Notes: a model not told the origin generated them from the sequence alone. 64,000 nt of DNA from Kiritimatiellia bacterium (GCA_016783675.1 JADHWE010000006.1:1406-65405); one strand, 5' to 3'; shown: positions 45,917 through 63,228, counted from the first letter of the stretch. Numbers and translations: made by a program.

Positions 45917-45965
45917 TCCATCATTCAATCGTCACTATGCATCACTTTGGAATGCCACTGCATCA
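45917..45965. promoter_or_regulatory. three phased TGCATCA-type direct repeats upstream of GH38
   Basis: TCCATCA at 45917, TGCATCA at 45938, TGCATCA at 45959. Start-to-start spacing is 21 nt for both steps. Confidence 0.55.
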
Positions 45966-45996
45966 TTATGGCCATTGCGATTGCCGTGTACCCCAC

Positions 45997-46962
45997 CTAC
46001 GACAAGCGCTTCAGCACGCCCTCGAAGCCCTCTTCATAGTGCGTGCAGAGGCCTTGGGTTCCGCTGTCGATGATGTTGCCGCCACCGATGCCGATCGGGG
46101 CGAAGCCGGCCAGCAGGATGGAGACGATCCCGGCGCCGCTGTCCTCGATGCCAACCACCTGGTGCCGATCTTCGAACGGAATGCCGAGACCAACCCGTGC
46201 CGTCTCGGCGTAAAGCCACGGGTGCGGCTTGGGAGAGAGCTCGCCAAGCGTGCCTGGTTCGCCGGGGCGAATGGCGTGACCGGCGGTGATGATGGCATCG
46301 TAGAAATCGTTGGGGTCGCCCATATCCAGCGTCTTGAATGCATCGAGGATTTCCGGCCATGCCTTCTCGTAGAGACCGGAAGTCACCAGCCCAATCTTCA
46401 GGCCCATGGCCTTGAGCTCATGCAGGAACTCCTTGATGCCCGGTGACGGCGTGAAGGCGCCCTTCTTGCCGCGGCCTTCCATGATCTCATTCATCTCGTG
46501 GTTGGTGTGCTTGAAGTACCAGGTCCGCGCCTCTTCTACCGACTTGTCCGGGCAGTATTTGCCAATGCAGTACTGCAGGTGTTCGGAGACCGAGTGGCCT
46601 GATACAAAGGGCTCGTCTGCGGCTTCGAGTCGGAAGGTCGAATCGCCCAGCAGGCTGGCCGTCGTCTTCTCAATGATCCAGATCCAGAAATGCTCGCTGT
46701 GGACCGTGGTGCCGTCCAGGTCCATCAGCACCGCCTTCAGCGGCCTATCGATCCGTACATCATGCAGGGGGTAGTAGGCCGGGTAGCCCATCGCCGATGC
46801 GACATAGGCAACGGCCCGGTCTTTGAACTGAATGAACTCCACCTTACCGTCGCCGGTTCGGGTGATATGCTCAACCCCATCCACCCCACACCGGAAACCG
46901 CCGTCGCTACAAGCGTCCAACGGAACCAGCCCTGCACTGCTCAGATTGATTTGTGAAGTCAT
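45997..46962 (-). CDS. HAD-superfamily hydrolase (beta-phosphoglucomutase/phosphatase-like) with an N-terminal extension
   Basis: Motif I VLMDLDGTTV, motif II GLVTSG, motif IV GIEDSGAG. Start taken at Met 46962. Confidence 0.7.
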   Translation of the reverse strand: MTSQINLSSAGLVPLDACSDGGFRCGVDGVEHITRTGDGKVEFIQFKDRAVAYVASAMGYPAYYPLHDVRIDRPLKAVLMDLDGTTVHSEHFWIWIIEKTTASLLGDSTFRLEAADEPFVSGHSVSEHLQYCIGKYCPDKSVEEARTWYFKHTNHEMNEIMEGRGKKGAFTPSPGIKEFLHELKAMGLKIGLVTSGLYEKAWPEILDAFKTLDMGDPNDFYDAIITAGHAIRPGEPGTLGELSPKPHPWLYAETARVGLGIPFEDRHQVVGIEDSGAGIVSILLAGFAPIGIGGGNIIDSGTQGLCTHYEEGFEGVLKRLS

Positions 46963-47010
46963 AGTGCCAAAGAGAATGCCGCATCCTCGCCAAAGCCACA
47001 ACGGCTTTGT

Positions 47011-47038
47011 TGCATCATATTCCCGTGCTTATGCATCA
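47011..47038. promoter_or_regulatory. paired TGCATCA direct repeats upstream of the HAD gene
   Basis: TGCATCA at 47011 and 47032, spacing 21 nt. Confidence 0.55.
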
Positions 47039-47110
47039 CATCGGACAGTGAGAGGGCATCCCTTCCCCACTGTCGGATATCGACCCACCTCTCGAACTCT
47101 AACGAGGCCA

Positions 47111-48520
47111 CTATTGCGGACACCCCAGCCCCTGCAGGTCAGTCCCGGTCTCCAATCGCCACCGGAAGATGCGATCTTTGAGGTCCCGCTCCAGGTCGCT
47201 CATATCACCACGACCCGCCAGGTTCTGTAGTTCCCGGGGATCCTTCTGCATGTCGAAGAGCTGCAGCGTCTCGGCTTCGACATTGATCACCATCTTGTAG
47301 CGCTGCGTGCGGATCATTGTCGTGCGGCCACCGGCGTTCTCAATCTCACTGAAGACGGCCTCGTGAAATGTCGCGCCGGCGTCCGCTGTTGCCGGTACCA
47401 GCGATTGGCCGAAGCAGTCGACTGATTCCACACCGGCAGCCTCCAGGACGGTCGGAAAGATGTCATTAATGCTGACGATGCTTTCACACCCCTTCCCCGC
47501 TCCCGGATTGCCGGGCAGACGAAGGATCAGGGGCACGCGAGCGGATTCGTCATAGTACACGGACTTGTGCACCTTGCCCCGATCACAGAGCCGGTCACCA
47601 TGATCAGACCAGAACGCAATGACCGTATTGTCCAGTTCGCCCTTTGCCTCGAGCACGTCCAAGAGCTCCCCAACAAGGCTGTCGAGATGGGCGATCTTGG
47701 CATAGTAAAGCCGGCGGATAGCCTGCCACGTTTCCTTGTCTGCCGGCTCGCCCATCATCGCCTTGTGGAACGCTTGCGCCGACGCGCCTAACCACGCTTC
47801 GGCCTCGGTCGGGGGGAGTGGCGCGGGCACATCGACATCCTCAAACCTGTCGGCCCACGCCTGGGGCGGATCCCACGGATCGTGCGGCCCGCCGATGCCG
47901 ACGAATACGGCAAACGGCCGCTCATCATCATAGTCCCGCAAGTACCTTGCAGCCGTACGAACGACAAACGTGTCCATGTGTTCGTCTTCGGGCAGAGGAC
48001 TGGGCCAGGTGGCCTTGAAGGGTCCAACCTCCTGTCGCCTAAGATAGTCGTCCCTGAACATGTCGAGTAGCCCCATTTTCCGCCAGCGATCGGTCAGGAT
48101 GGAGTCGGTATCAAGTGTTGCCCACGGACCCGTGGTTTCGAGTACATCCTCATGACCCAGGCTCTTTACATAGTCCTTTTCACTCTCCAGGTGTTGACCG
48201 GAATGGACGTAGTAGTGCGACTTACCGATGTGGGCGGTGCGGTATCCGTTCTCCCGGAGCACACTCATGTAGGTGCGTGTCCCCGCCGGCAGGTGGCCGG
48301 TATTGCTCCACTGGCCGGTGTTGTGGCTGTAGAGGCCGCTGATGCAGTTACTGCGTGCAGGCATGCAGATCGGACTCGAACTGTAGGCGTTGTCAAACCG
48401 CACCCCCATGGAGGCCAGCCGATCCAGGTTCGGCGTCTGGACCGCGGGATGCCCCGCAGACGCCAGCGAGTCGCCCCGCAACGTGTCCGGCATGATCACG
48501 AGAATGTTGGGTTTCTTCAT
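47111..48520 (-). CDS. Cys-type sulfatase (no signal peptide)
   Basis: NILVIMPDTLRGD and the C-x-P-x-R motif in SSPICMPARSNCISG. Confidence 0.85.
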   Translation of the reverse strand: MKKPNILVIMPDTLRGDSLASAGHPAVQTPNLDRLASMGVRFDNAYSSSPICMPARSNCISGLYSHNTGQWSNTGHLPAGTRTYMSVLRENGYRTAHIGKSHYYVHSGQHLESEKDYVKSLGHEDVLETTGPWATLDTDSILTDRWRKMGLLDMFRDDYLRRQEVGPFKATWPSPLPEDEHMDTFVVRTAARYLRDYDDERPFAVFVGIGGPHDPWDPPQAWADRFEDVDVPAPLPPTEAEAWLGASAQAFHKAMMGEPADKETWQAIRRLYYAKIAHLDSLVGELLDVLEAKGELDNTVIAFWSDHGDRLCDRGKVHKSVYYDESARVPLILRLPGNPGAGKGCESIVSINDIFPTVLEAAGVESVDCFGQSLVPATADAGATFHEAVFSEIENAGGRTTMIRTQRYKMVINVEAETLQLFDMQKDPRELQNLAGRGDMSDLERDLKDRIFRWRLETGTDLQGLGCPQ

Positions 48521-48531
48521 AGCAATCGAGT

Positions 48532-49746
48532 TCAGTCCAGCGGCTTAATCTTCAGGTTGCGAAACCAGATCGGCGCCCCACCGTGTTTGCCCTGGAAGCC
48601 AATGCGGCCTTTGGTGGGATGGTTGTTGAGCGGCTTGCTCAGCCATCCTGGCTTTTTCGTGCCATCCGGGTTATGCGTGGCGGAATCCCACTTGAGCATA
48701 TCCATGGAGTTCACGTGTTCGCCGTTGAGGATCACATCGATACGTGGGCCTTTGCAGATGATCGTGTAGCGATTCCACTCCCCTGCGGGTTTCACCGCAC
48801 TCTCACAGGGCGCCAAGCGCCCGAAGATGGCCCCGCACTTCCAGGTGGGATTCGCCTTGGCCCATTTTTCCGACTCGTCATCGGTAATCTGAATCTCTAC
48901 CGAGTTCCGAACCCAACCGGCCGGATCCGTGAGGTATACAAACACGCCGCTGTTGGCGGCCGGGCCGTTCTTGAATTCGAGATCGAGAACGAAGTTCTCG
49001 TATTCCTTTTTGGTCATGATCAGCTTGTCCTGGCTGGCAGTGATCTCGCCATTCGACACGGTCCAGACCCCTGCAGGGAACTCGGCATTCGAGAGATCAG
49101 GAGCGAACAGCGGCTCCCAGCCGGCAGCACCGACCGCAGCGGGATTCTTCGCCACCGCCTTCAGCTCTTCGGCCGTGAGCAGTTCCAGCTCGGAGAGCTG
49201 GGTGGTGTGCGTGCCCCAGTTCTTAGTGACGTCCAGTTTGTACCAGGCGTAGTCGCCCGGCTTACTGACCTCGAACTGGCGCCTCTGGAAGCGCTGCGAG
49301 AACTCCTCGTCCTTGCGCTGATCCAACACATCCCACTGCTTGCCATCCGTGGATCCCCTCAGGGTCCAATTGCAGGGATCGCGCAGCGGATGATCGTTGG
49401 CCGTGGTCAGGGCATAGGCCACAACATGCTTCGTCGTGCCCTTCGCGGACTGGTGCTGAATCCACATCGTAGGAGCGAGAGTGCAGTACTTGGTTTTCGC
49501 AGTGCCGTCAAACGCCATTTCCGGTCCCTCGCCGCACGCGGCACCTTCGGTGCACGCACTTACCGTTGCTCCCCCGGACAGCTTCGCGGCCGCCCCGTTC
49601 TCCGGCTCCGGCCAGAGGCCGCTTCCCTCCCGGCGGTAGTTCTCATAGACCTCATCCAGCGCGTCTATGCCCACAAACTCCGCACCCGCACAGGCGAGGC
49701 AAGAGATCGACAACACTATCCCGCAAACCACTATCACGTTTCGCAT
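48532..49746 (-). CDS. secreted F5/8 type C (discoidin) + DUF1080 (3-keto-disaccharide hydrolase-like) protein
   Basis: Signal peptide. Discoidin region (AFDGTAKTKYCT...WTLRGSTDGKQWDVL). DUF1080 region (GWEPLF...GVWTVSNGEITAS...SGVFVY...EIQITDD...GRIGFQGKHGGAPIWFRNLKIKPL). Confidence 0.7.
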   Translation of the reverse strand: MRNVIVVCGIVLSISCLACAGAEFVGIDALDEVYENYRREGSGLWPEPENGAAAKLSGGATVSACTEGAACGEGPEMAFDGTAKTKYCTLAPTMWIQHQSAKGTTKHVVAYALTTANDHPLRDPCNWTLRGSTDGKQWDVLDQRKDEEFSQRFQRRQFEVSKPGDYAWYKLDVTKNWGTHTTQLSELELLTAEELKAVAKNPAAVGAAGWEPLFAPDLSNAEFPAGVWTVSNGEITASQDKLIMTKKEYENFVLDLEFKNGPAANSGVFVYLTDPAGWVRNSVEIQITDDESEKWAKANPTWKCGAIFGRLAPCESAVKPAGEWNRYTIICKGPRIDVILNGEHVNSMDMLKWDSATHNPDGTKKPGWLSKPLNNHPTKGRIGFQGKHGGAPIWFRNLKIKPLD

Positions 49747-49771
49747 GTTCAGCGTCCTTTGGATCCTGAAT

Positions 49772-49812
49772 CCCTCACAATTTTCAATCTTAAACTTTCA
49801 ATTTTCAATTCT
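49772..49812. repeat. AT-rich intergenic spacer with three TTTCAAT copies
   Basis: TTTCAAT at 49782, 49796 and 49803, between the Gfo stop codon (49813) and the DUF1080 start codon (49746). Confidence 0.6.
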
Positions 49813-51153
49813 CTAGTACTTCCGATATTGCTTACGAACCAGGGCCGTGGCTTCCGGATCGTTGGGGCACTCCATACGTTTCGCGTCCCACTCAATACGC
49901 CGTCCCAGCCGGGCGGCCAGGTTGCCTATCAATACCATTTCGGTCAACGGTCCGGCATAGTCGAAGTTGGCTCCGGCGGGCGCCCCGCCCTTGCAGGCTT
50001 CGATCCATTCCTTGTAGTGACCGATCGAAGGTTTCTCGGTCTTCTCCGGTAGTCCGTTCTTACCAAACTCACGCATCTTCGCCTCCGGAATGATGCGGAT
50101 GGATTGGCAGTAGATGCCGTTGAACATGAGCGTGCCTTCAGAACCGTACCAGAAGGCGCCCCCGTCACCGCCCGGCAGATTCCGTCCCTCCTCGAGCTCG
50201 GGCGGGCGAGGCGGCTGCTTTTTGCCGTCGTGCCAGACAAGCTTGATCGGCCCGCGCTCGGCGGTGGCAGGGAATTGATAGGTGATGATCGACCACGCGG
50301 GGCAGCTCCACTCGCTTTTCGGGCCGGTGACGGCGTCCACGCTGGTCGGACGTCCCAGCTTGAGGACATCGAAGTGGCAGTCCATGGCATGACAGCCGAT
50401 GTCGCCCAGCGCGCCGCAGCCGTACTCCCACCATCCGCGCCATGCGAAGGGGAGATAGGCCCTGTTGTAGGCGCGCTCCTGGGCCACGCCCTGCCAGAGA
50501 TTCCAGTCCAGGTGCGTCGGCGCCGCCTGGGCCGGCTGCAGCGGCCGGTCGCCCTGGGGCCAGATAGGCCGGTTCGTGTAGATGTGCACCTCATGGACTT
50601 CACCAACAGCCCTCGCCGCGTACCACTCGCGCAGCCGCCGGATACCTGTTCCGGAATGTCCCTGGATCCCCATATGCGTAGCCACCTGGTGCTTGCGCGC
50701 CGCCTCCGTAAGCGACCGGGCTTCTTCAATGGTGTGCGCCAACGGCTTCTGCACAAAGACATGCTTGCCCATCTTGATCGCCATCATCGCCGCCGGAAAA
50801 TGCATGTGGTCCGGGGTGCTGATAGTGACGGCATCGATCTGGTCATCCATTTCCATCAGCATGCGCCGGAAATCCTTGTATCGCTTGGCCTGGGGATACT
50901 TTTCGAAGGTGCCCTTGGCCCGTTCGAAATCGACATCGCAGAGCGCCACGATATTCTCGCCGGCGACCGCTGCCACATCACTATTCCCCTTGCCCCCAAC
51001 CCCGATGCAAGCGATGTTGAGTTTGCGCCCCTCGATGATGGTACCCGTCCGGGAGGGAATATCACCCCAGGCCCACTCGATGTTCGGCAGGGCGGCATAG
51101 GCCACTGCCCCGAGTCCGGCGGTCCCTATAAATCTGCGTCTATCCATGGACAT
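49813..51153 (-). CDS. TAT-exported Gfo/Idh/MocA-family oxidoreductase
   Basis: Twin-arginine signal MSMDRRRFIGTAGLGA. Rossmann motif IACIGVGGKGNSD and the EKPL-type motif VFVQKPLAHT. Confidence 0.85.
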   Translation of the reverse strand: MSMDRRRFIGTAGLGAVAYAALPNIEWAWGDIPSRTGTIIEGRKLNIACIGVGGKGNSDVAAVAGENIVALCDVDFERAKGTFEKYPQAKRYKDFRRMLMEMDDQIDAVTISTPDHMHFPAAMMAIKMGKHVFVQKPLAHTIEEARSLTEAARKHQVATHMGIQGHSGTGIRRLREWYAARAVGEVHEVHIYTNRPIWPQGDRPLQPAQAAPTHLDWNLWQGVAQERAYNRAYLPFAWRGWWEYGCGALGDIGCHAMDCHFDVLKLGRPTSVDAVTGPKSEWSCPAWSIITYQFPATAERGPIKLVWHDGKKQPPRPPELEEGRNLPGGDGGAFWYGSEGTLMFNGIYCQSIRIIPEAKMREFGKNGLPEKTEKPSIGHYKEWIEACKGGAPAGANFDYAGPLTEMVLIGNLAARLGRRIEWDAKRMECPNDPEATALVRKQYRKY

Positions 51154-51284: not shown

Positions 51285-51328
51285 TTCATCACAATGGCAA
51301 GCATGCATCATTTTATCAACCTGATGAA
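51285..51328. promoter_or_regulatory. TGCATCA-type sites upstream of the Gfo/DUF1080/sulfatase operon
   Basis: TTCATCA at 51285, TGCATCA at 51304 (spacing 19 nt), and an inverted TGATGAA at 51322. Confidence 0.4.
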
Positions 51329-51386
51329 TCCTTTTGGGCTCGGAACCGCCACCCCTGTCCTGAACTACTCACGAACAAGCAACGCC

Positions 51387-51551
51387 TTATGGGGATAACG
51401 GCACCGGTTCGGGGGTCAGCCACACGGTGACCTCGAGCTCCGCCACCTTGGTGACCATGTGGTCTTGGATCTTTTTCTCACACGCATCAATGAGGCCGAG
51501 CACACCGCTAGCGTAAACGCTGTCGCTGTAATCATTGTGGCGTGCAGTCAT
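51387..51551 (-). CDS. possible 54-aa small protein downstream of the UroD-like gene
   Basis: ATG 51551 lies 7 nt after the UroD-like stop and is preceded by an AGGAA purine tract. It translates to MTARHNDYSDSVYASGVLGLIDACEKKIQDHMVTKVAELEVTVWLTPEPVPLSP. It is below the ORF-track cutoff and I recognise no homology. Confidence 0.25.
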   Translation of the reverse strand: MTARHNDYSDSVYASGVLGLIDACEKKIQDHMVTKVAELEVTVWLTPEPVPLSP

Positions 51552-51558
51552 ATCATTC

Positions 51559-52455
51559 CTAAGCGACGTGCGCCTCTGCGATGCATCTATACTCGTCCCA
51601 CATCGTCTTGTAGCTCTCCGGCGGCATGCCGTTGAAGATGCAATTCGAGGTCGAGAAGATGTAGGGCTTCCCTACCCCGCCATGTGTCATGCAGTAGCGC
51701 ACTGACTCCCGGATCTCATTCTGGTTGGTGTCCTGCAGCATGTTGCAGGCGACATTACCCATCAGAATCCAGTCCGGGTACTGCGCTCTGACCTCCTTGA
51801 TATCCATGTGGCCCTGCGGGTCGACTGACTGGTAGCCATCGACGCCGGTGGCATGGATCTGATCGAGGATCTGGGTGATGCAGCCATCCGAATGCAGGAT
51901 GGCCTTCTTGCCCAGGTCATGGATATTCGCAACGACCTCGGTCAGATACGGCGCGACAAACTCGGCATACTGATCAGGCGAAACAAACGGCGCATCGTTA
52001 TAGCCGAAATCATACGTCAGGACAAAGAAGTCGGCCCCGACATCGACGGCCTGTTTGAAGTACACCTTCGCGTTCTCGACCTTCTGCCGCGCCTCCGCGT
52101 GCAGCTCGTCCGGCTGTTCGAACAGGCGGATCACGAAGTCCATTACATCACCGCCGGTCGGCATGTAGAAGACGCCACCACCATCGTAAGCGGGAATAAG
52201 CGCCTTGTGGCCGAGTGCCTTTTTGACTCCGGCAATCTCCTCGACACCGTATCCGCCGCGGATCGCCGCCCAGTCATACTCGTCAACCAAGCGGTGATAG
52301 ACATCGATCTGTGCGGCCTGCCGGTCGGCTTCCGACAACGCCTCCAGGTCGACACCGAACATTTCCTTCTCGATCTGAAAAACCAGTTCCCAGTGCGGTG
52401 GCGTTTCCGGAACCCCACCGTTCAAAACCATCTCAAGCTTCTCTTTGCCGGTCAT
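51559..52455 (-). CDS. uroporphyrinogen-decarboxylase (URO-D/MtaA-like) family protein
   Basis: ILHSDGCITQILDQIHATGVDGYQSVDP and YIFSTSNCIF, parallel to the URO-D-like gene at 37528..38727. Start taken at Met 52455. Confidence 0.7.
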   Translation of the reverse strand: MTGKEKLEMVLNGGVPETPPHWELVFQIEKEMFGVDLEALSEADRQAAQIDVYHRLVDEYDWAAIRGGYGVEEIAGVKKALGHKALIPAYDGGGVFYMPTGGDVMDFVIRLFEQPDELHAEARQKVENAKVYFKQAVDVGADFFVLTYDFGYNDAPFVSPDQYAEFVAPYLTEVVANIHDLGKKAILHSDGCITQILDQIHATGVDGYQSVDPQGHMDIKEVRAQYPDWILMGNVACNMLQDTNQNEIRESVRYCMTHGGVGKPYIFSTSNCIFNGMPPESYKTMWDEYRCIAEAHVA

Positions 52456-52532
52456 CACGCTCTTTCCCCTATGAATTGCCATGCATCGCAAGAAGGATAG
52501 ACTTTTGGGTGCTGCTGCACCAACCGCCAACA

Positions 52533-52560
52533 TGCATCATTGCCAACGACGCCTGCATCA
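52533..52560. promoter_or_regulatory. paired TGCATCA direct repeats upstream of the UroD-like gene
   Basis: TGCATCA at 52533 and 52554, spacing 21 nt. An additional TGCATCG lies at 52482. Confidence 0.55.
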
Positions 52561-52649
52561 TTCTTGACAGGGCAAATGAGAGGCCACGAACCCCCATCTC
52601 CGCCGTTGTCGGCAAAGCTCCAAAGGACACGTGGGCGGCTTTGCCAGTA

Positions 52650-52693
52650 GCCCTGAAAGGGCGAAATATACAAGCCCAGGGCAACGCCCTGGG
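52650..52693. repeat. REP-like composite palindromic unit (copy B1, inverted orientation)
   Basis: GCCCT-GAA-AGGGC, a 12-nt spacer containing ATATAC, then CCCAGGGC-AAC-GCCCTGGG. Confidence 0.75.
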
Positions 52694-52715
52694 TAACGTA
52701 TGCGAGGGAGTATCA

Positions 52716-52798: not shown

Positions 52799-52842
52799 CC
52801 CAGGGCTTCGCCCTGGGCTGGTATATCCTGCCCCTTCGGGGC
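52799..52842. repeat. REP-like composite palindromic unit (copy B3)
   Basis: CCCAGGGC-TTC-GCCCTGGG, a 12-nt spacer containing GTATAT, then GCCCC-TTC-GGGGC. Confidence 0.75.
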
Positions 52843-52917
52843 GAAGAATCGGTCGCCCCACGGGTTCCTCGGTGCCGACAGCGGAGCCCTCACTTAGACT
52901 GATTGCGCCAAACAGGA

Positions 52918-54537
52918 TCAGACCCTAACCACGACCTCGTCCGCTCCCATCTTCTCGCCGGCATCGAAGGAGTCCGCGAGCGCGGGCACGTCTGAGAGTG
53001 AGATGTACTCGTGGGCCGCCGTGTTCGCCACATCTTTAGACATGACGAAGCCGAGTAACTCGACCCAGTCGGTCTGCTGCTTGTAGGTATGGTAGATCGT
53101 CTGATTCTCGTACTTGGCGTGGAGCTCGTGACCGGGCTCGTACGGGTTCTTGAACGGTTCCTGCGCGCACTGCGTGTAGGGGTCGAGTGTGACAAAGTGG
53201 CGCCCGGTCTCGTTGTTCCTGATCACGAAGAGCGGATACGACCCGTTGACCGGCCAGGCGTAAACCCGGCACTGCGGGTCCCCTGCCCCTTCGCGGCTCA
53301 GCACGGTATCCCCTTCGAGCGTCTTCGCGTAGAGAGGTACGAGCGGTACGATCCCCTCGTTGAAGTCGAGTACCTGGTGGTCCGCATGCTCGGCAAGGAT
53401 GCTGCCCTTCTTCGCGACATGCTCGAGTGAGCCGATCACGAAGTACATCCGGATAAGGTGCGGCGTGCGCGGGGTCTCCTCTGGACCGTAGTTGGTCGCC
53501 TGCACCATGTAGTCGCGCATGGCATCGTCAGCGTAGCCACAGGCGTAACTCGGCGTGTGGTCTTTGGCCCCGTCGGTCAGCTCCTTACCGAAGACGACAC
53601 CGAGAGCGTAATCGTATGGATTATCCGCATTGGGCGTGGCCGCAATCCAGCCGCCGGTGTCCTTGAAGGGAATGGAACGGTCGTTGGAAAAGAAACTAAC
53701 CGGATGCCAATAGCGATAGGAGCCGTCCGGGTTGGAGACGACCTGCTCCCGGAACAACGAGTGACGCACCCCACCCCAGGGGCCAAGGTTCATCTGGCAC
53801 TCGTCCTCGAAGTTGTAGACGAGGTAGCTCATCTCGATCACGCCGTCCCCAAGATCGCGGTAGTTGACGTAAATCAGTACCCCGCTGCGGTTCATGCTCG
53901 GGGTGGGAACTTGCCCCCAGTTCAGCATCGAGAAGGAGCGCTTCTCTGGATCAAAGTGCTCGCCCAGCAACGGGGTATAGAAGGTCTTCTTCTCCATGTC
54001 CCCCTTGATGTACATGCCGGACTGATGCACGAATGCATTCCCGTAGTGCTTGAATACAGTCCCCCTGTCCTCGGGGAGCTCATTCATGCGCGCAATGCTC
54101 GGATAGATCGTGGTGAACTGCCAGGCCTCATCCATCCACTGCGCGCCCTGATTCTGGGGCGGCACCGCCTCGCCGAAGAACGAGTAGATCGAATAGAGGT
54201 GCCCGCCTTTGCCAATTCCCAGGTCCCACTTACGTTCCTCCGGAGACTGGTGCTGCAGCCGCGCATGGAACACGGCACTCTCATCAAGCTCGCCCTTCTG
54301 CTCCTGGCGCGTCTCCTCGTCCACGAGGGACAGCCCACGCCACTCATCGCCACGCGCCCCCCATCGACTGTCACGAATCTTCCAGTCGAGCTCCTTCTTC
54401 AGCACCAGCTCGCTCGGCTTGTCGTAGAATGTCGGCGCCGGTGATTCAGGGAACAACCCCATGAATAGCGCCTGCGTTTCGTCCGGGGCCTTCTGCTCTT
54501 GAGTCTCTTCAGCGGTCATCGTTTTACTCACTTCCAA
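52918..54537 (-). CDS. conserved protein of unknown family (cytosolic paralogue of 58448..60088)
   Basis: 539-aa ORF with no signal peptide. It aligns along most of its length with the 58448..60088 product (for example LGIGKGG, WQFTTIY, NAFVHQSG, NLGPWGGVR, SNPDGSYR, NADNPY, GVVFGK, VYAWPVN, NNETGRHFVT, TDW.ELLGFVM). Confidence 0.6.
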   Translation of the reverse strand: MEVSKTMTAEETQEQKAPDETQALFMGLFPESPAPTFYDKPSELVLKKELDWKIRDSRWGARGDEWRGLSLVDEETRQEQKGELDESAVFHARLQHQSPEERKWDLGIGKGGHLYSIYSFFGEAVPPQNQGAQWMDEAWQFTTIYPSIARMNELPEDRGTVFKHYGNAFVHQSGMYIKGDMEKKTFYTPLLGEHFDPEKRSFSMLNWGQVPTPSMNRSGVLIYVNYRDLGDGVIEMSYLVYNFEDECQMNLGPWGGVRHSLFREQVVSNPDGSYRYWHPVSFFSNDRSIPFKDTGGWIAATPNADNPYDYALGVVFGKELTDGAKDHTPSYACGYADDAMRDYMVQATNYGPEETPRTPHLIRMYFVIGSLEHVAKKGSILAEHADHQVLDFNEGIVPLVPLYAKTLEGDTVLSREGAGDPQCRVYAWPVNGSYPLFVIRNNETGRHFVTLDPYTQCAQEPFKNPYEPGHELHAKYENQTIYHTYKQQTDWVELLGFVMSKDVANTAAHEYISLSDVPALADSFDAGEKMGADEVVVRV

Positions 54538-55108: not shown

Positions 55109-55766
55109 AGCAATTACCCCGCTCAAACGGGATTTTCTGAAGGCCTTCTTTTCGAGGGAGAAACGCTTCTTCCTGACAGGGGGAAGCGCGTTGGGTCTGT
55201 TCTATCTCCAGCACAGATACTCGTATGACCTCGACCTCTTCTCGGTCGAGCACTTGGATTGGCTTGAACTCGATGGCGTCATGCGGCTCTGCGCCAGGGA
55301 CAGTAACGCTGATTTGGAATTGCTGCGAGACGCCCCAACTTTCAGGCGATACCACCTTACCACCGCGGATCATACCGAGATCATTGATATCGTCTTTGAC
55401 GTCAGCCCCCAAATCGATCAAGAGAAGAGGCTATTCGGGGACGTTCGAGTTGACACACTCCATGAAATCATGCTGAACAAGATTACGACGTTGATCAGCC
55501 GATGCGAGCTCAAGGATATCGTCGACCTGTACTTTCTGGAGCAGGAGGGCTTTCAGATTGAAGCCTGTTTTGAGGACGCTCAGCAGAAGGATGGCGGATT
55601 GGACCCAGGCATGATTTCACTGCTGCTGAACTCAGTTGCGATTGTCGAATTACCCGACTACTTGATCAAGCCTTTGACCCTCGAAGCACTGCGCACGTAT
55701 GTGGATGATTTGAAGCGCCGAATGGTCCTGATGGCCTATCCAGACGAAACCAGAGACACACCGTAG
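55089..55766 (+). CDS. nucleotidyltransferase AbiEii/AbiGii (DUF1814) toxin-family protein
   Basis: N-terminal FLKAFFSREKRFFLTGGSALGLFYLQHRYSYDLDLF matches the DUF1814 nucleotidyltransferase signature. Start taken at ATG 55089. Confidence 0.75.
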   Translation: MTWENSKAITPLKRDFLKAFFSREKRFFLTGGSALGLFYLQHRYSYDLDLFSVEHLDWLELDGVMRLCARDSNADLELLRDAPTFRRYHLTTADHTEIIDIVFDVSPQIDQEKRLFGDVRVDTLHEIMLNKITTLISRCELKDIVDLYFLEQEGFQIEACFEDAQQKDGGLDPGMISLLLNSVAIVELPDYLIKPLTLEALRTYVDDLKRRMVLMAYPDETRDTP

Positions 55767-56217: not shown

Positions 56218-58452
56218 CTAGCGGGCCTGACTGTCGCCCATAGTCAGCACCAACAGACCACCTGCCGTGATCTCCTCATGGCTGATTTCGAGACGATCAA
56301 GGGGACGACCGTTCAGTTCGGCCGACTGGATGTAGATGTTGTCGGGGCTGTTGTTGCGGGCAACAATGGTGAACGTCTTGCCGGTGTGATAGTCCGGGTC
56401 CAGCGTGATCTCGATGCGATCAAAGACGGGGCTGGTGATCTGGTAGATGCCGTCCCCGGGACAGATGGGGTGAATACCCATCGCCGCCAAAACATACCAG
56501 GCTGACATCTGGCCGACGTCTTCGTTTCCGCAGAGTCCAAAGGGACCCGGCCCATAGGCCTTGGCGCAGATCATGCGTGACCACTTTTGCGTCAGCCATG
56601 GCTTCCCAATCGCGTTGAAGAGAAAGACGGTGTTGTGCACCGGCTCATTCGGGTGGTTGTAGTAGTCGTTCCAGAGAAAATCCTCCGGCGTGTTCTCAAA
56701 GAGCGCAGTCAGCTCTTGGAGAAAGTAGTCTTCCCCCATCAGCTCAACCAGACCGGGAATATCGTGCGGCACAAACCAGCCCTGCTGATAGGGATTGGAC
56801 TCGCGGCAACCCTGGCCATGCACGGTCTTGCCCTGCCAGTCGAGCCAGTGGCCCTCCTCGTCCCGGGCGCGAAACCAGCGCACCTCGTCGTTCCAGATGT
56901 TGCGATAGGCCCTGCTGCGCTCGTCGTAGACGCGCGCCAGATCGGCCTTGCCGAGGCTTTCGGCAAAGCGCGCGAAACACCAGTCGGAGTACGCGTATTC
57001 CAGCGTTTCAGAAATACACCCCTTGCCAATGCCCTTGGCAGCGTATCCTTGCTCGCCGTTACCGAAGGTGTCAACTGACTGCCGACAGCAGGCGAACGCT
57101 TTGTCGGTGTCGTAGTTCCTGATTCCCTTGCGGTAGGCATCCACGATCACCACGACCCCGGGATTTCCGAGCATTGAGCCCGTATAGGCGTTTAGCATTT
57201 CCCATCGCGGCAAATACCCTCGCCCACTAAGTTCCGCGATCTGCAGCAGGGAGTTGATCTCGTCGTTCACCATGGCGGGATTGATGAGCGTCTGCAGTGG
57301 AAACTGCGAACGATAGACATCCCACCCACTGAAGACAGAGCGATAGGTGAAGTCCTCGGCCCGGTGCACATGCCCATCCGCGCCAACGTAGTCGCCGTTC
57401 ACATCGCTAACGCAACGGGGATCTATCATCGTGTGATAGAGCGCCGTGTAGAAGGTCTCCTTGTCGTCGTCCGTCCCGCCCTCGACGCGCACGACTGACA
57501 GCGCCCGCTCCCAGGATGCCTGGGCCTCGTCACGCACAGCATCGAAATCCCAGTGCGGAATGTCGTGCTCAAGGTTGGCTTTTGCCCCTTCGATGCTCAC
57601 GAATGAGATACCGCACTTGAGCAGCACGACGTCGTCCGCTGCCGTCTCGAACTCCGTGAAGAACCCGAGGTGCCGCCCCTGCGCCTCGCGCGCACCATAC
57701 GTGACGGGCGCCTCCGCCACGGCCTGCTGGTAGGCATCGGCCGCCACGTCGAAGTTCTTCCGTTCCCACGCGTCCGGGATCTCGGCACGCCAAACCCCGT
57801 ATCGTGTCAGCGGCTTGCTGAACTGACAGTAGAAGTGAACCGTGTAATCGACAGTGCCGCCACCGTTGCCGAATCCGCCGCCTTCGGGCGGACAGGTCAT
57901 CCAGCCACAGATGGTGTGCTCATCCACAACGCGTACGAACTGCTCGGTCGAGGTACCCCCCACCCTGCGCGCCAGATCGATCTGGATCCGGGATTGCTCA
58001 TGCTTGGGAAACGCGAAGCGAATCATCCCTGCACGCGGCGTCGCCGTCAGCTCAGCCCGCACCGCGTAGTCGTCGAGTGTGATCGCGTAGTAGCCGGCCT
58101 GCGCCACTTCAGTGGCATGCGATATCCGCGAGCGATATCCCCGGTCCGGATTCTCGCGCGTGCCCCTGGCCGTGTGCAGTGCACCCACCGTGGGGGTAAC
58201 CAGGAAGTTGCCCAGATCGCCATACCAGCCGGTACCGCTAAGGTGGGTGAAGCTGAAGCCCTCCAGCGTGTCATGCACATAGGAGTAGCCGGAACTGTTG
58301 TCGCCGCCAGTGATCGTGTCGGGGCTGAGCTGGACCAGCCCAAACGGTGTGGCCGCACCGGGGAAGGTCTTCCCGAAACCGTGCGCATCGGCGCTGCCTT
58401 CAGCGTAGGTGACCGCACCGATCAGCGGGTTGACATAGGAAACCGGTTTAAT
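56218..58452 (-). CDS. GH92 alpha-mannosidase (no signal peptide; start codon non-canonical or unresolved)
   Basis: Conserved GH92 N-terminus VNPLIG...GKTFPGAATPFGLVQLSPDT...SGYSY.HDTLEGFSFTHLSGTG. It extends 58 codons upstream of the track start (GTG 58278) up to an in-frame TAA at 58471-58473. The only plausible initiator is ATT 58452, preceded by GGAGGA. Confidence 0.75.
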   Translation of the reverse strand: MKPVSYVNPLIGAVTYAEGSADAHGFGKTFPGAATPFGLVQLSPDTITGGDNSSGYSYVHDTLEGFSFTHLSGTGWYGDLGNFLVTPTVGALHTARGTRENPDRGYRSRISHATEVAQAGYYAITLDDYAVRAELTATPRAGMIRFAFPKHEQSRIQIDLARRVGGTSTEQFVRVVDEHTICGWMTCPPEGGGFGNGGGTVDYTVHFYCQFSKPLTRYGVWRAEIPDAWERKNFDVAADAYQQAVAEAPVTYGAREAQGRHLGFFTEFETAADDVVLLKCGISFVSIEGAKANLEHDIPHWDFDAVRDEAQASWERALSVVRVEGGTDDDKETFYTALYHTMIDPRCVSDVNGDYVGADGHVHRAEDFTYRSVFSGWDVYRSQFPLQTLINPAMVNDEINSLLQIAELSGRGYLPRWEMLNAYTGSMLGNPGVVVIVDAYRKGIRNYDTDKAFACCRQSVDTFGNGEQGYAAKGIGKGCISETLEYAYSDWCFARFAESLGKADLARVYDERSRAYRNIWNDEVRWFRARDEEGHWLDWQGKTVHGQGCRESNPYQQGWFVPHDIPGLVELMGEDYFLQELTALFENTPEDFLWNDYYNHPNEPVHNTVFLFNAIGKPWLTQKWSRMICAKAYGPGPFGLCGNEDVGQMSAWYVLAAMGIHPICPGDGIYQITSPVFDRIEITLDPDYHTGKTFTIVARNNSPDNIYIQSAELNGRPLDRLEISHEEITAGGLLVLTMGDSQAR

Positions 58453-60088
58453 CGGTGTTCCTCCGCACCATTATGTCTTGAGCACCAATCGTGTCCCCCG
58501 GGTCGAAAGCCTGTTCCAGGGCCGGGATGGCTGACAAGGAGTCGTACGCATACGTTTTCCTGTCCGCCCTATCTTCAGGCATCACGAAGCCTAACAACTC
58601 GATCCAATCGGTCTTTTTGAGATAGGGCCGATAGATAGTGCGGTCCTGGTACTTCGCGTAGCTCGCGTGCCCGGGCTTGAACGGATTCTTGAACGGCTCG
58701 CTCGCACACTGTGCGTACGGGTCTGTGGTCACGAAATGGCGTCCGGTCTCATTGTTCTTCATCAGAAAAAGCGGAACGGATTGGTTCACCGGCCAGGCGT
58801 ATACCTTGCAGACGGGCTGCCCGGCGGCTTCGCGGCTCAGCACTGCATCGGCCCCGACCCGCTTTGCATAAAGAGGAACCAGCGGCGTGTTGGCCTCCGA
58901 GAGATCGAGCGGCTCGTAGTCGGCATGATCCGCAAGCCGGTTGCACTTCTCGGCCACCTTGTCGAGCGTATCGATCACGAAATACATGCGCAGCATGTGC
59001 GGCGTTCCGGGCTTATCCTTGATGTTGATAACGGTGGCCTGGACGGTATAGTCGCGCGTCCCGTGCCGGCTATCGCCGCAGTCGTAACGCGGCTTGCCGT
59101 AGTGCTCGCCCTTCCGGTCCAGCTGCTTGCCGAATACCACCCCGATCGCATGGCTATAGGGGTTGTCCGCATTGGCGGTCACCGCGGCCCAGCCGCCGGT
59201 GTCCTCGAAGTTGACCCTGCACCCATCGAGGCGGTCAAAACCATATGACCAAGGCGTGAAGAAACGGTACGAACCGTCGGGGTTGGAGATGACGTGCTCG
59301 GGAAACACGGAGGTACGCACCCCACCCCACGGCCCCAGATTGGTCATCGGTTCGTCCTCGAAGTTGTAGATGACGTAGGTCACCTCGATGACGCCCGCAC
59401 CGAGATCGCGGTACTTGGTGTAGACTAGTATCCCACTGCGGTTGATGCTCGGGGACGGAATCTGGCCCCACGACAGCACTGAGTAGGAGCGCTCTTTCGC
59501 ATCGAAATGCTCGGCCAGGATCGGAGAGTAGAACGGCTTGCTGTCCTTCTCTTTCGTGTAGACGCCCGACTGGTGGACGAACGCATTGGCGAACTTCATC
59601 CGTGTGGCATCACCGGGTATGTCGGGCAGGTCGCGCCCCAGCAGATGTCCGTAGATGGTCGTAAACTGCCAGACTTCATCATTCCACTGGCTATCCGGCT
59701 GCGATGGCGCCATCGCCTCGCCAAACGAGGAGTACATCGAGTAGATCTGTCCGCCCTTGCCGATGCCGAGTTCCCAGCTCCGCTCGGTCGTCGAACGGTG
59801 CTGGAGCGTGGCGTGGAAGACCGAATTCTCGTCCAGCTCCGGATGCCACTTCTTATCCCGCTCCCACCAGGCCAGACTCTTGAGCAAGACCGTCTCGCTC
59901 TGTTTCTCAAAGTTCGTCGGTGCCGCCGATTTCGGAAAGAGCTGCAAGAGCTGCGCGTCGGCCGGATCGGCCGTTTGCGGTGCTGCCGCGACCGGCAGAG
60001 CCATGCCGGCAATCAGCAGTCCCAACAGGACAATCCAGCTAGACCCACGCCGCAAAGCAAAACCCATAACACGATCTCTTAATGTCAT
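58448..60088 (-). CDS. conserved protein of unknown family (secreted paralogue of 52918..54537)
   Basis: N-terminal signal peptide (WIVLLGLLIAGMALPVAAAPQ); the rest is co-linear with the 52918..54537 product. The start is either Met 60088 or Met 60067. Confidence 0.6.
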   Translation of the reverse strand: MTLRDRVMGFALRRGSSWIVLLGLLIAGMALPVAAAPQTADPADAQLLQLFPKSAAPTNFEKQSETVLLKSLAWWERDKKWHPELDENSVFHATLQHRSTTERSWELGIGKGGQIYSMYSSFGEAMAPSQPDSQWNDEVWQFTTIYGHLLGRDLPDIPGDATRMKFANAFVHQSGVYTKEKDSKPFYSPILAEHFDAKERSYSVLSWGQIPSPSINRSGILVYTKYRDLGAGVIEVTYVIYNFEDEPMTNLGPWGGVRTSVFPEHVISNPDGSYRFFTPWSYGFDRLDGCRVNFEDTGGWAAVTANADNPYSHAIGVVFGKQLDRKGEHYGKPRYDCGDSRHGTRDYTVQATVINIKDKPGTPHMLRMYFVIDTLDKVAEKCNRLADHADYEPLDLSEANTPLVPLYAKRVGADAVLSREAAGQPVCKVYAWPVNQSVPLFLMKNNETGRHFVTTDPYAQCASEPFKNPFKPGHASYAKYQDRTIYRPYLKKTDWIELLGFVMPEDRADRKTYAYDSLSAIPALEQAFDPGDTIGAQDIMVRRNTD

Positions 60089-60204
60089 TATCACCTCACA
60101 GTTCCTACACATCGTACAGAATGATCACAGATTACGCCAGAGGTGCCGATGCTCCTCCTGCACCGGCCGTGCGGCAAGCAAATGACGGATGTCTGATCAG
60201 GCGG

Positions 60205-62883
60205 TTATCGCAAGAACTCAATCTCAGCAATCTGAACCGAGTTGGCGGTCTTGACATCCCGGACGGCCGAGATGTTCAGTCGATAGAAGGGGTAGGCCTT
60301 GGTCTTCTTGCAGCTGAAACGGCGCTTCTCAAGGCGCTTGGACCACTGTTCACCTGTGCGCGTGTCCAGCGTGGTCCAGCTTTTACCGTCATTGGACCCC
60401 TGTAGCTGCCAGTCCCTGGGATCCCGCTCCTGACCATCATCCGCACTGGTAATGGCATAGCCGCTGATGGCTTCGGGCGCTTTGTGCCGGATCTGAATCC
60501 AGCTCGCCTCAGGAGAGAAGTCGAGCCACTTGGTCTTGACGTCGCCGTCGAAGGCCTGCGCGGACGTCTGCGACGGCGGATGTTCACCCCTGGCTCGCGT
60601 ATTATCTCGCACGGGGCTCGACCATCGCTTGGTCACAAACTGGTTCAGAACCGAAAGCTTCGCCTCCGGCACATCCAGAGCGCATATGGCATAGCGCAGG
60701 TTGCGCATGGCGGAGGCATAGCTGCGCTCCTCGACCGGGGTCTTGGCAATCCCCTTGGCCGACTTGATCTCCAGTTCCAGCGCGCGTGTGTCCTGGCCGC
60801 TCTTCCTTGCATTCCGCTTCGCCTTGACCGCGGTGTTGATCAGCGACACCAGGCCCGGCCGATAGGCGTAGCCGTCCTCAATCACGGCCACACCGGTGCC
60901 GTCCTTTCCGCCCGGCCCACCATAGGGAGCAACCCACTCGGAGTTGACCTGATAGTTGTTCTCGTCACGCAAATAGAAGACGCCATGCGTCATCCCCGGC
61001 GGGGCAATCGCCGTGGCCACGCCCTTGCCCAATGTAGCGGGAGCCTCGAGCCACTCCTCATACCCGGGATGGTCCCGCAGAAAGTCTGAACCGTTGGTGG
61101 TATAGACCAACCTGGCATCCACAATCTTCGCCTTGTCCTTGCCCGTCTCGAAACGCACTTCGATGCGATCGCCCTTGCTGCTTCGCTTGAGTACCTCCGG
61201 GACCTTGTCGTTGCCAGGAAGCCCCCGACCAGGAGTATCCGCATTCTTGTAAGGTAGCGGCGCGTCATAGGTTGCCAACCACGCCTTCAACTTGCTGAGC
61301 AGCTCGTCCCGCTTCTCGGGATGCTCGTCGGCTAGATTGTGGGCCTCACCAAGATCAGCCGGTGAGCCATCCTTGTTGTAAAGCCGGTACAACTGGATCT
61401 CGGGGCGCGTGTGGTCCATGCCAGCGCCATGGTAGAGCAGCAGCTTCCAGTCCCCCTTGCGGATGATACTGGAGGAGGGCAGCGGACTGGGATAGTGAAA
61501 GAAGATGCTCTCGCGCGGCCGGCCATCGGCAAAGCGCGCCTTGTCATCTTTCCCGAGAATCGCGGGCAGAACATTGCACCCGTCCAGATCGAGGTCAGCC
61601 CGCGGTTTGGCCCCGGCCATGGCCAGGTAGGTCGGGAACATATCAATCAGGTTGATCGGGGTGTCGCAGACGCTGCCCTCTTCAACGCCGGGTCCCTGGA
61701 CAATGAAGGGAATGCGCAATCCACCCTCGTACACCTCCAGCTTCCCACCCCGCAATGGGAGGTTGTCCGTGATGCGCTCACGTTCGCCCTTCCCGCGACC
61801 ATTCTTCACCGGCGACTGTGTCAGCCCACCGTTGTCAGAACTGAGCATGACGTAGGTATTGTCGATGAGTTTGTGCCCCGGATTGCGGGGATCGTCGGTC
61901 TCCTCAAGAAACGTGAGAAGCTTGCCAACCTGCCAGTCCAGGCTGTCGAGCATCGCGGCGTAATAGGGATTCGCCTGCCGCGATGGCATGCCTTCCGCAA
62001 TCAGACCCGGATCCGTCGGAAAAGGCACGCCCATCTTCTTGCAGTAGTGCTCAAGGCGTTTGCGATCGCGGGTAGAGAAAGGTCCGTGCACGAAGGAGGG
62101 ACAGAAATTCAGGAAGAAAGGCTCATCCTGGTTCTTGGCCTTGTCCATCCAGCGCACCGCAAGGTCGACCACCCCGTCGAACGGACGGTCATCATCCTTG
62201 GGGTCGGTACGGAAAGGATCGTCGGGGGCGGATGTCGCAAAGCCCTCATGCCGGGGGTTTAGGGGTGACCAGATGCCGTGCCAGTATCCAGGCCTTCTGG
62301 CGCACTCATCCCACAGTTCGGGGTCATTGTAGGGCACGCCGGGCTTGCCCTCCCAGCTGAAGTCAAAGCCGTACGCCACCGGTCCGGGATAGCCGTTGCT
62401 GCGGCCGCCGCAGTGCCATTTCTGGATATGCGCACTGACGTAGCCGGCCTCCTTCAGCAAGCGCGGGATCGTCGGAGTGTCAAGCGGGACCCGTGACGGG
62501 TAGAAGGGCTCACCATAGGCATGCACCGCGTGATAGGGCCGCGCCAGCCGCCCGCCCATGACATGCAGGACCCCATTATGTACACCGTACTGACCGGAGA
62601 TATAGGCTGCACGCGATGGCGCGCAGGTCGGCGCGGGTGAATACGCCTGCATGAAGCGCCGCCCATTCCTGGCCAGCCGATCCATATGCGGCGTCTCGTA
62701 GATCGACTCCTCGCCACGCACCGCACGGAAGTAACACGCGGGGTCCATCCAGCCCAGATCATCGGTCAGGATGTGGACAATGTTGGGTTTGGGCACCGTG
62801 GTGGGTTCAGGCGTCGCATGAGCCGCCGAAGCCACAAGAAACAAGGCCGTAGTCGTGGCCGCGATAGTAGTTGGTCGTCTCAT
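60205..62883 (-). CDS. secreted Cys-type sulfatase with a C-terminal F5/8 type C (discoidin) domain
   Basis: Signal peptide MRRPTTIAATTTALFLVASAAHA. IVHILTDDLGW and the C-x-P-x-R motif in PAPTCAPSRAAYISG. The discoidin tail is FDGDVKTKWLDF...WQLQGSNDGKSWTTL. Start taken at Met 62883 with a GGAGAAAGAG purine tract upstream. The 75-codon 5' extension in the track is rejected. Confidence 0.85.
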   Translation of the reverse strand: MRRPTTIAATTTALFLVASAAHATPEPTTVPKPNIVHILTDDLGWMDPACYFRAVRGEESIYETPHMDRLARNGRRFMQAYSPAPTCAPSRAAYISGQYGVHNGVLHVMGGRLARPYHAVHAYGEPFYPSRVPLDTPTIPRLLKEAGYVSAHIQKWHCGGRSNGYPGPVAYGFDFSWEGKPGVPYNDPELWDECARRPGYWHGIWSPLNPRHEGFATSAPDDPFRTDPKDDDRPFDGVVDLAVRWMDKAKNQDEPFFLNFCPSFVHGPFSTRDRKRLEHYCKKMGVPFPTDPGLIAEGMPSRQANPYYAAMLDSLDWQVGKLLTFLEETDDPRNPGHKLIDNTYVMLSSDNGGLTQSPVKNGRGKGERERITDNLPLRGGKLEVYEGGLRIPFIVQGPGVEEGSVCDTPINLIDMFPTYLAMAGAKPRADLDLDGCNVLPAILGKDDKARFADGRPRESIFFHYPSPLPSSSIIRKGDWKLLLYHGAGMDHTRPEIQLYRLYNKDGSPADLGEAHNLADEHPEKRDELLSKLKAWLATYDAPLPYKNADTPGRGLPGNDKVPEVLKRSSKGDRIEVRFETGKDKAKIVDARLVYTTNGSDFLRDHPGYEEWLEAPATLGKGVATAIAPPGMTHGVFYLRDENNYQVNSEWVAPYGGPGGKDGTGVAVIEDGYAYRPGLVSLINTAVKAKRNARKSGQDTRALELEIKSAKGIAKTPVEERSYASAMRNLRYAICALDVPEAKLSVLNQFVTKRWSSPVRDNTRARGEHPPSQTSAQAFDGDVKTKWLDFSPEASWIQIRHKAPEAISGYAITSADDGQERDPRDWQLQGSNDGKSWTTLDTRTGEQWSKRLEKRRFSCKKTKAYPFYRLNISAVRDVKTANSVQIAEIEFLR

Positions 62884-63117
62884 GTCTATCTCTTTCTCCG
62901 TATGTACTCTCTCTGGGTAGGACGACAACGGCAATCCCGCCCAGCGGGAGTGGACGATTGAAGTTTGCGCCCATGTCCGAGACGGCCATCTCCGCTCGTC
63001 CCTCGATACGATGGCCATACAGAGGACACCCCCATCCTTCGTAATGCGCTCGGGGCGAGGTACGAGTGGAGATGGTCTCAGTATCACACTCCGCCCCAGA
63101 CTTCGCAATAGCCACTA

Positions 63118-63145
63118 TGCATCATCTCGATACCTGCATGCATCA
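63118..63145. promoter_or_regulatory. paired TGCATCA direct repeats in the divergent sulfatase / XylR-like intergenic region
   Basis: TGCATCA at 63118 and 63139, spacing 21 nt. The 12-mer CACTATGCATCA is identical to the one at 45934. Confidence 0.55.
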
Positions 63146-63221
63146 CTTTGAGGGGCGTTGGCTTCACATTACAGAAACTGAAGCACATGACCCCATTCTC
63201 TGTTGCCAACGCAGGTACTGA

Positions 63222-63228
63222 TGCATCA
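63222..63228. promoter_or_regulatory. single TGCATCA site 29 nt upstream of the XylR-like regulator ATG
   Basis: ATGCATCATT at 63221-63230. Confidence 0.35.

Follow-up and report, generated by a model that had tools for sequence, protein, structure and literature searches.

Six phased repeat pairs as probable operators of a XylR-like regulator in a predicted sulfated-fucan degradation regulon of a Kiritimatiellae bacterium

A 64,000 nucleotide (nt) stretch of DNA from an uncultured Kiritimatiellae bacterium (JADHWE010000006.1:1406-65405, here termed the window) contains six intergenic elements of 35 base pairs (bp). These are probably the operators of a XylR-like regulator encoded by a divergent gene, and through them the regulator would activate a set of genes for the degradation of sulfated fucan. 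Each putative operator would consist of two direct repeats of a 14-mer with starts 21 bp apart. A preliminary description of the window had drawn attention to the repeats as intergenic, 21-nt-phased copies of the heptamer TGCATCA, and had proposed that they join mannosidase, sulfatase, oxidoreductase, UroD-like and unknown-family genes in one regulon. Four exact and two near-exact pairs are recovered here, and the proposed regulon is supported, with the unknown-family genes now recognized as endo-1,3-fucanase homologues.

TGCATCA is present in 18 copies in the window. A scan for TGCATCA-N14-TGCATCA shows exact pairs on the + strand at positions 45938/45959, 47011/47032, 52533/52554 and 63118/63139, and pairs with one mismatch, also on the + strand, at 54602/54623 (previously given as 54601/54622, which is off by one) and 45917/45938. 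When up to two mismatches are allowed there are 11 matches in the window, compared with a mean of 0.70 in 100 shuffles (maximum 4). In an unbiased count of every 7-mer at spacings of 8–60 nt, the top entry is TGCATCA at 21 nt, found at four scattered loci, and the sole other entry with more than two loci in the window is a local 7-nt tandem repeat.

Gene starts were taken from gene calls on near-identical sister metagenome contigs. With these corrected starts, 12 of the 18 heptamer copies are intergenic, though intergenic DNA makes up 7% of the window. The six 21-nt pairs are all intergenic, are located upstream of minus-strand genes between 45.9 and 63.2 kilobases (kb), and are found nowhere else in the window. 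The pair is thus far above chance and restricted to intergenic DNA of the glycan block. This agrees with the preliminary description, in which the paired arrangement was not seen in the intergenic regions of the first 38 kb and all targets were placed on the minus strand with the repeats in the same orientation to each. A 12-mer said to be common to positions 45934 and 63114 is also present at both, and a second check confirms 11 of its 12 bases.

The conserved sequence extends beyond the heptamer. Every heptamer has conserved flanks when read toward the minus-strand genes, and the heptamer search involves no selection for flanks. Heptamer and flanks together form the 14-mer CCAWARTGATGCAT (in the orientation of the genes), which reaches 14.9 bits over 30 sites. 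Scored as pairs with starts 21 nt apart, a 14-nt weight matrix yields six pairs and no more in the window at 33 bits or above (range 33–40), one for each of the regions noted earlier. The next independent pair scores about 13 bits. In random 20-kb sequences (300 trials) the best pair averages 12.7 bits; its 99th percentile is 21.9 bits, and no trial exceeds 25. Single sites of at least 13.3 bits are found in the window only within the six pair regions or at positions 63213–63234. The first 32 kb, which encode housekeeping and secretion functions and one sulfatase, have zero sites in the matrix scan.

The matrix also changes the reading of several individual sites. The sixth region had been described as copies at 51285 and 51304, i.e. 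19 nt apart, followed by an inverted TGATGAA; this arrangement is replaced by a regular 21-nt pair with starts at 51304 and 51325. The distal copy at 51325 (TGAATCC with a CCAAAA flank; CCAAAAGGATTCAT) was absent from the matrix training and scores 13.8 bits. TTCATCA at 51285 scores 11.3 bits, overlaps the -35-like ATTGTGA, and is rejected as a site. Two other sequences that had been listed as additional copies are likewise rejected: TCCATCA at 45917, the supposed third copy of its region, scores 4.6 bits and overlaps a -35-like box, and TGCATCG at 52482 has a low score and overlaps the called start codon of the UroD-like gene. According to the sister-contig gene calls this start is at 52482 and not at 52455, the HAD gene starts at 46962, and the open reading frame given earlier as 52918..54537 is taken here as a fucanase homologue at 52918–54519.

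Promoters were aligned on the proximal repeat, six from the window and nine from related species (n = 15). The sequence TTG is located exactly 8 nt past the proximal 14-mer in all six window promoters and in 12 of the 15 overall; the count at any other offset is three or less. At 17 nt beyond this RTTGnnn block there is a weak -10-like hexamer, in which the second base is A in 10 of the 15 promoters and the sixth is T in 9, e.g. GATACT (twice), GATAGT, GATAAT, TATTGT and GAACAT. If transcription starts where this layout predicts, the repeats would be at about -78 to -65 and -57 to -44 of weak promoters, which is an activator geometry. The earlier view of the sites as candidate AraC/XylS-type activator operators is supported by this fixed position of the pairs beside a -35-like TTG.

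When the six window promoters are compared two by two, mean identity reaches 0.68–0.71 for the 14-mers, 0.57 for RTTGnnn and 0.45 for the -10 region. The spacers and flanks display 0.23–0.30, compared with a random expectation of 0.26. The conserved segments are therefore constrained islands and not duplicated promoter cassettes. An Rfam scan shows no family overlapping the pairs.

The distance from pair to start codon varies from 48 to 235 nt in the six window promoters. The start codons of the GH38 (45890), HAD (46962) and UroD-like (52482) genes come 46–49 nt after the proximal repeat, i.e. 2–6 nt past the predicted transcription start. This suggests that the three mRNAs would be nearly leaderless, provided that the predicted start holds. 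With respect to ribosome binding sequences, the HAD and UroD-like genes display none of Shine-Dalgarno type, and purine-rich ones are present at the genes with long leaders (Gfo, sulfatase, fucanase homologue, regulator).

The regulator gene is divergent from the operon of the sulfatase at 60205–62883. The N-terminal part of its translated sequence displays a Peripla_BP_3 domain (Pfam, E-value = 1.4e-28), i.e. a sugar-binding domain of the periplasmic-binding-protein (PBP)/LacI type. The C-terminal part has HTH_18/HTH_AraC matches (Pfam, with the full 374 amino acid (aa) sequence), which correspond to an AraC-type domain with two helix-turn-helix motifs, and residues 260–370 match the DNA-binding domains of SoxS, AraC, AdpA and Rob in the PDB. 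The approximately 100-aa C-terminal domain with two helix-turn-helix motifs is that of the AraC/XylS family, and the union of a PBP/LacI-type ligand domain with an AraC-type DNA-binding domain is the architecture of the XylR subtype. Among PDB entries E. coli XylR (4FE4/4FE7) is matched best, along the entire protein, with residues 14–366 aligned to residues 17–389 of 4FE4 (E-value = 4.9e-20). The protein does not reach the NCBIfam XylR equivalog, all matches being far below the cut-offs, and no xylose isomerase or xylose transporter is found among the target genes by Pfam and PDB matches. The regulator would work like XylR but is not a XylR orthologue, and its ligand is probably not xylose.

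A single site with a palindromic core is located 17–29 nt ahead of the regulator ATG, at 63219–63234. It overlaps the -10 (CATTAT) of TTGCCA-N18-CATTAT at 63203–63232 on the regulator's strand, which is the sole sigma-70-like match in the divergent region. Similar single sites are found within 35 nt of the regulator start codon in three related loci (L016, L042 and L032). By analogy with araO1, the position of this site over the -10 of the candidate promoter suggests that the regulator may repress its own gene.

Regulator orthologues of other species were taken with their flanking DNA, as loci of 6–21 kb. In L014, L043, L045 and L033/L038 the best pair of the locus is intergenic and directly upstream of the regulator gene. 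In L042 the pair at this position scores level with the top of the locus (29.3 vs. 29.4 bits). The pairs upstream of regulator orthologues all face a divergent glycan operon, in the same orientation as in the window, and the promoter block of the divergent region is homologous in L042 and L043. In total, two direct-repeat half-sites with about 21-bp phasing are present as six pairs in the window and nine in related loci, the latter at 20–21 nt. Between species the spacers differ and the motif blocks are kept. Pairs are also found upstream of target gene orthologues: the 892-aa sulfatase in L042 (61% identity), the 539-aa fucanase homologue in L043 (85%), and an operon in L045 which contains fucanase (66%) and GH95 (62%) orthologues. 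Thus the sites are conserved upstream of both orthologous regulators and orthologous targets in other species; the preliminary description had put forward conservation upstream of orthologous operons as a check. Fifteen loci with XylR-like genes of 36% identity or less give 4–19 bits and are without such an arrangement; the recognition helices of these regulators differ.

A scan of metagenomes with the regulator alignment gave mostly short contigs, and two of the loci (L035 and L036) are without usable upstream DNA. Locus L032, from a low-GC organism with a regulator of 60% identity, has a single site CCATAATGATGCAT (19.1 bits) 35 nt ahead of the ATG. Positions 1–110 of the same locus contain about six units of the GACAGAATCATTTT type with a 16–18-nt period, upstream of the regulator orthologue.

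The predicted regulon contains two endo-1,3-fucanase homologues, three sulfatases, and GH95, GH38 and GH92 genes, as determined by Pfam and PDB matches. The two fucanase homologues (52918–54519 and 58448–60067) are paralogues with 54% identity. Neither has a Pfam or NCBIfam match. Both are matched by 8JD7_A, a PDB chain deposited as an endo-1,3-fucanase (E-values = 2.2e-75 and 4.8e-61, the latter for the homologue at 52918–54519), and by a further chain deposited as an endo-1,3-fucanase, 9K1G_A. No link from PDB 8JD7 to a CAZy family number was found. For a 554-aa open reading frame the called start differs, which gives the 539-aa version. The gene content as predicted has the endo-fucanase, sulfatase and exo-fucosidase-type glycoside hydrolase genes that mark a sulfated-fucan locus, and the orthologous operon in L045 also has a GH29-type Alpha_L_fucos gene. 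Because two of the targets are endo-1,3-fucanase homologues, the substrate of the regulon is probably sulfated fucan (fucoidan).

Table 1. Positions of the repeat pairs, the regulator gene, the predicted transcription units and the corresponding features in related loci. Related loci are numbered from their own first nucleotide.
Feature	Position	Strand	Score (bits)	Details
Putative operator pair, GH38-GH95 operon	45937–45971	-	39.9	CCATAATGATGCAG-N7-CCAAAGTGATGCAT; downstream ATTGAAT, 17 nt, GAACAT; ATG 45890 about 3 nt past predicted transcription start
Putative operator pair, HAD-family hydrolase gene 45997–46962	47010–47044	-	33.1	downstream GTTGTGG at +8
Putative operator pair, Gfo/DUF1080/sulfatase operon 47111–51153	51303–51337	-	34.7	downstream ATTGTGA, 17 nt, GATACT
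Putative operator pair, UroD/MtaA-like gene 51559–52482 and 54-aa open reading frame 51387–51551	52532–52566	-	33.1	downstream GTTGGTG at +8
Putative operator pair, endo-1,3-fucanase homologue 52918–54519	54601–54635	-	39.3	downstream ATTGCTC, 17 nt, GATAGT
Putative operator pair, divergent region	63117–63151	-	38.8	faces sulfatase/fucanase homologue/GH92 operon 56218–62883; downstream ATTGCGA, 17 nt, GATACT
Single candidate autoregulatory site	63219–63234		17.9 on -, 13.3 on +	palindromic core TGATGCATCA
XylR-like regulator gene	63251–64000	+		374 aa; truncated by window end; complete in sister contig L006:1669-2793 (minus strand)
Predicted regulon	39815–62883	-		six units, from Pfam/PDB matches; units defined by the six pairs
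Unit 1		-		sulfatase 60205–62883, fucanase homologue 58448–60067, GH92
Unit 2	52918–54519	-		fucanase homologue; terminator-like hairpin after, 52693–52675
Unit 3		-		UroD/MtaA-like gene 51559–52482 and 54-aa open reading frame
Unit 4	47111–51153	-		Gfo/Idh/MocA oxidoreductase, DUF1080 (3-keto-disaccharide hydrolase), sulfatase
Unit 5	45997–46962	-		HAD hydrolase
Unit 6	39815–45890	-		GH38 and GH95
L014, pair	9881–9915		34.9	regulator 68% identity
L043, pair	1252–1286		24.5	regulator 77% identity
L042, pair	9773–9807		29.3	regulator 63% identity; upstream of regulator
L042, further pair	17395–17429		29.4	top of locus
L042, further pair	7983–8016
L045, pair	9931–9965		33.3	regulator 54% identity
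L033/L038, pair			21	regulator 52% identity
L016, pair			26	regulator 76% identity; one small open reading frame further off
L016, second pair	15311/15331			20-nt spacing; then GTTGCC-N17-GATAAT
L016, single site				9 nt ahead of regulator ATG

Several of the target genes have features of their own. GH92 is called from a GTG at 58278 (686 aa), but the frame is open to 58470 (- strand), and in its upstream part there is homology to the N-terminus of GH92 from L044. The likely start is an ATT at 58452. It comes 6 nt after a Shine-Dalgarno sequence, GGAGGA, and shares bases with the stop codon of the fucanase homologue upstream (ATTAA). With this non-canonical, translationally coupled start there is no real 169-nt gap in the GH92 operon. 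The GH95 gene contains a perfect (CACCCGA)x5 at 43002–43036 (- strand) in codons 4–15, just past its GTG start. Since a change in copy number would shift the GH95 frame, the repeat could be a slipped-strand switch; no copy variation is seen in the four other assemblies that cover it, all of which have 5 copies.

Two UroD-fold proteins are encoded on the - strand, one in the regulon (51559–52482) and one at 37528–38751, the latter at the head of a neighbouring ABC-transporter operon that adjoins an AraC-family gene. The best NCBIfam similarity of both is to methylcobamide methyltransferases of the MtaA/CmuA type, far below the cut-offs. Sugar O-demethylation is one possible role for such proteins in glycan use.

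An AbiEii toxin gene and a small upstream open reading frame are located at 54821–55766 (+ strand) between two of the units, and are apparently a type IV toxin-antitoxin system. This AbiE insertion, although inside 39815–62883, is not counted in the predicted regulon. In L042 an AbiEii gene also adjoins the orthologous sulfatase. Matches to Acido-Lenti-1 RNA (RF01687) are found at 52649–52693 (-) and 52799–52843 (+), with 44.3 and 41 bits compared with a gathering score of 37, and just under the gathering score at 38758–38802 (-) and 38784–38828 (+). They form inverted pairs, after the fucanase homologue and between the UroD-like and AraC genes, and the match at 52649–52693 overlaps the terminator-like hairpin of Unit 2.

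A model of how the operators may work can be drawn from these features. The starts of the two repeats are two helical turns apart, hence both would face one side of the DNA, and each would receive one DNA-binding domain of a regulator dimer. The proximal repeat would end 8 bp ahead of the -35-like TTG, with the sites at about -78 to -44 and with weak -35 and -10 sequences. The sugar-bound regulator, with fucose or a fucan-derived sugar as the probable ligand, would then recruit RNA polymerase and turn on the six transcription units. The single site over the -10 of the regulator's candidate promoter would provide for negative autoregulation.

Several points weigh against a XylR-like activator at these sites. 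Because the related loci were retrieved by way of the regulator, the co-occurrence of regulator and sites is partly built in; this does not apply to where the sites are located, which way they face and how they score. L041 (regulator 69% identity) has no pair in the 271 nt upstream of the regulator, where a same-strand gene abuts it. L034 and L044 display only degenerate pairs of 16.7 and 17.3 bits, which is inside the random range; in L044 (regulator 51% identity) synteny is kept and the pair is of the TGATATA type only. The specificity of the pairs is judged within 64 kb plus about 3 kb of this genome. A strict sigma-70 scan finds no more promoter-like sites than in shuffles and calls none 3′ of the pairs, so the promoter model is built wholly on positional conservation; the -35 and -10 assignments are weak matches, and a promoter consensus for Kiritimatiellae is not established. 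In addition, CAWART of each 14-mer resembles a -10 hexamer, and to some extent this would also fit a repressor.

If the same regulator were a repressor at the same sites, CAWART would be the -10 of the real promoter and the sugar would release the protein. Each 14-mer does contain a hexamer whose second base is A and whose sixth is T (e.g. CATAAT, TAAAAT), and the downstream -35 and -10 are weak and uncalled by the strict scan. However, there is no TTG-like -35 at 17 nt upstream of the CAWART hexamers, a position that is occupied by CCAWA of the distal repeat. The TTG that is fixed 8 nt past the proximal repeat in 12 of the 15 promoters, with its -10-like hexamer 17 nt further on, and the three start codons that come 2–6 nt past the start predicted for activation also argue against it. 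E. coli XylR and most AraC-family proteins are activators with such a layout (PMC3561964). Repression is thus unlikely, and we infer that the regulator activates.

The sites may be true operators of another protein, which is also considered improbable. The preliminary description had named two candidates, the XylR-like gene (63251 onward) and an AraC-family gene at 38904–39770; the evidence favours the first. The AraC-family gene is located beside the GH95 end of the block, yet its upstream region (38752–38903) has no site, and its orthologue is present in none of the related loci with pairs. It is therefore rejected as the binder. A further choice would be an unlinked regulator that likewise uses direct repeats phased by 21 bp beside the -35, e.g. 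a response regulator of the LytTR type. In favour of this choice, LytTR proteins recognize 9-bp direct repeats, separated by 12 bp, immediately ahead of the -35. However, no LytTR or alternative regulator is found among the larger open reading frames of the window, and in about six species the pairs and single sites track the 5′ region of the XylR-like gene.

It is very unlikely that the repeats are something other than operators, i.e. promoter elements of an alternative sigma factor, an RNA element of the 5′ leader, or remnants of duplicated promoter DNA. The 21-nt start-to-start distance is close to the -35/-10 spacing of some extracytoplasmic function (ECF) promoters, and the motif contains AUGAUG within 50–100 nt of several start codons. 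However, one 14-mer makes up both copies of a pair, unlike -35 and -10 elements, which are recognized by distinct sigma domains, and the distance to the start codon is variable, as given above. Simple duplication is excluded by the random identity of spacers and flanks, and between species it is the spacers that diverge. The RNA element is rejected, as Rfam gives no match on the pairs. The XylR-like protein is thus the binder that we infer for the six elements.

In E. coli the XylR sites IA and IF are about 37 bp, each with two direct repeats, and adjoin the -35 (PMC3561964). Both promoters served by XylR have poor -35 and -10 sequences, which suggests recruitment of RNA polymerase (PMC3561964). 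The system described here has in common with E. coli XylR a regulator in which a LacI/PBP-type domain for sugar binding precedes a DNA-binding domain of the AraC type, and a regulator gene beside its predicted sugar-utilization targets, as with xylAB/xylFGH. The putative operators, of about 35–37 bp with two direct repeats, would also correspond in their position next to the -35 or -35-like sequence of poor promoters. The relationship is nevertheless distant. The repeat is CCAWARTGATGCAT here and gaAa-a-a-AAT in XylR, there are six putative operators and one single site compared with two operators, and the host is an uncultured Kiritimatiellae bacterium whose predicted targets are fucanase, sulfatase and glycosidase genes.

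The 21-bp-phased pairs and the single site overlapping the regulator's candidate -10 also resemble AraC. The araI1-I2 half-sites are direct repeats with 21-bp phasing, of which the proximal one abuts or overlaps the -35, and AraC, which is divergently transcribed, represses its own promoter through a separate site (araO1). AraC differs in that its arabinose-binding and dimerization domain is of the cupin type and not of the PBP type. Furthermore, the proximal repeat here ends 8 bp short of TTG and does not overlap it, and a distal looping site has not been identified.

XylS binds at Pm to two direct repeats which start with TGCA (TGCA-N6-GGNTA), are 21 bp apart and reach the -35 region. The TGCA core and the 21-bp phasing are seen here as well. 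However, in the direction of transcription the present site reads CCAWAR-TGATGCAT, with the TGCA end promoter-proximal and on the opposite strand. Its second box resembles CCA/TGG and not GGNTA, and the effector domain of XylS is different.

As the mechanism is the familiar XylR/AraC design, the system represents a new instance and not a new principle. A limited search of the searchable literature shows no regulator or operator of fucoidan degradation described in Planctomycetes-Verrucomicrobia-Chlamydiae (PVC) bacteria. It is possible, though put forward tentatively, that the XylR-like sensor and its 35-bp operator, conserved across several uncultured lineages of Kiritimatiellae/Verrucomicrobia type, constitute the first cis-regulatory code to be defined in the PVC superphylum for the degradation of fucoidan (sulfated fucan). 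On this view three of the six promoters would give almost leaderless mRNAs.

A conserved operator together with a sugar-sensing regulator constitutes a testable regulon. It would assign to the pathway genes that have had no known role, i.e. the UroD/MtaA-like gene, the Gfo/DUF1080 pair, the HAD gene and the 54-aa open reading frame. If the proposal is correct, fucan-degradation regulons that include genes of the UroD/MtaA-like, Gfo/DUF1080 and HAD types could be read from metagenomes by the motif, which may also be used to find more genes of the pathway. The operators and their regulator are in addition a candidate inducible promoter system for an uncultured PVC lineage.

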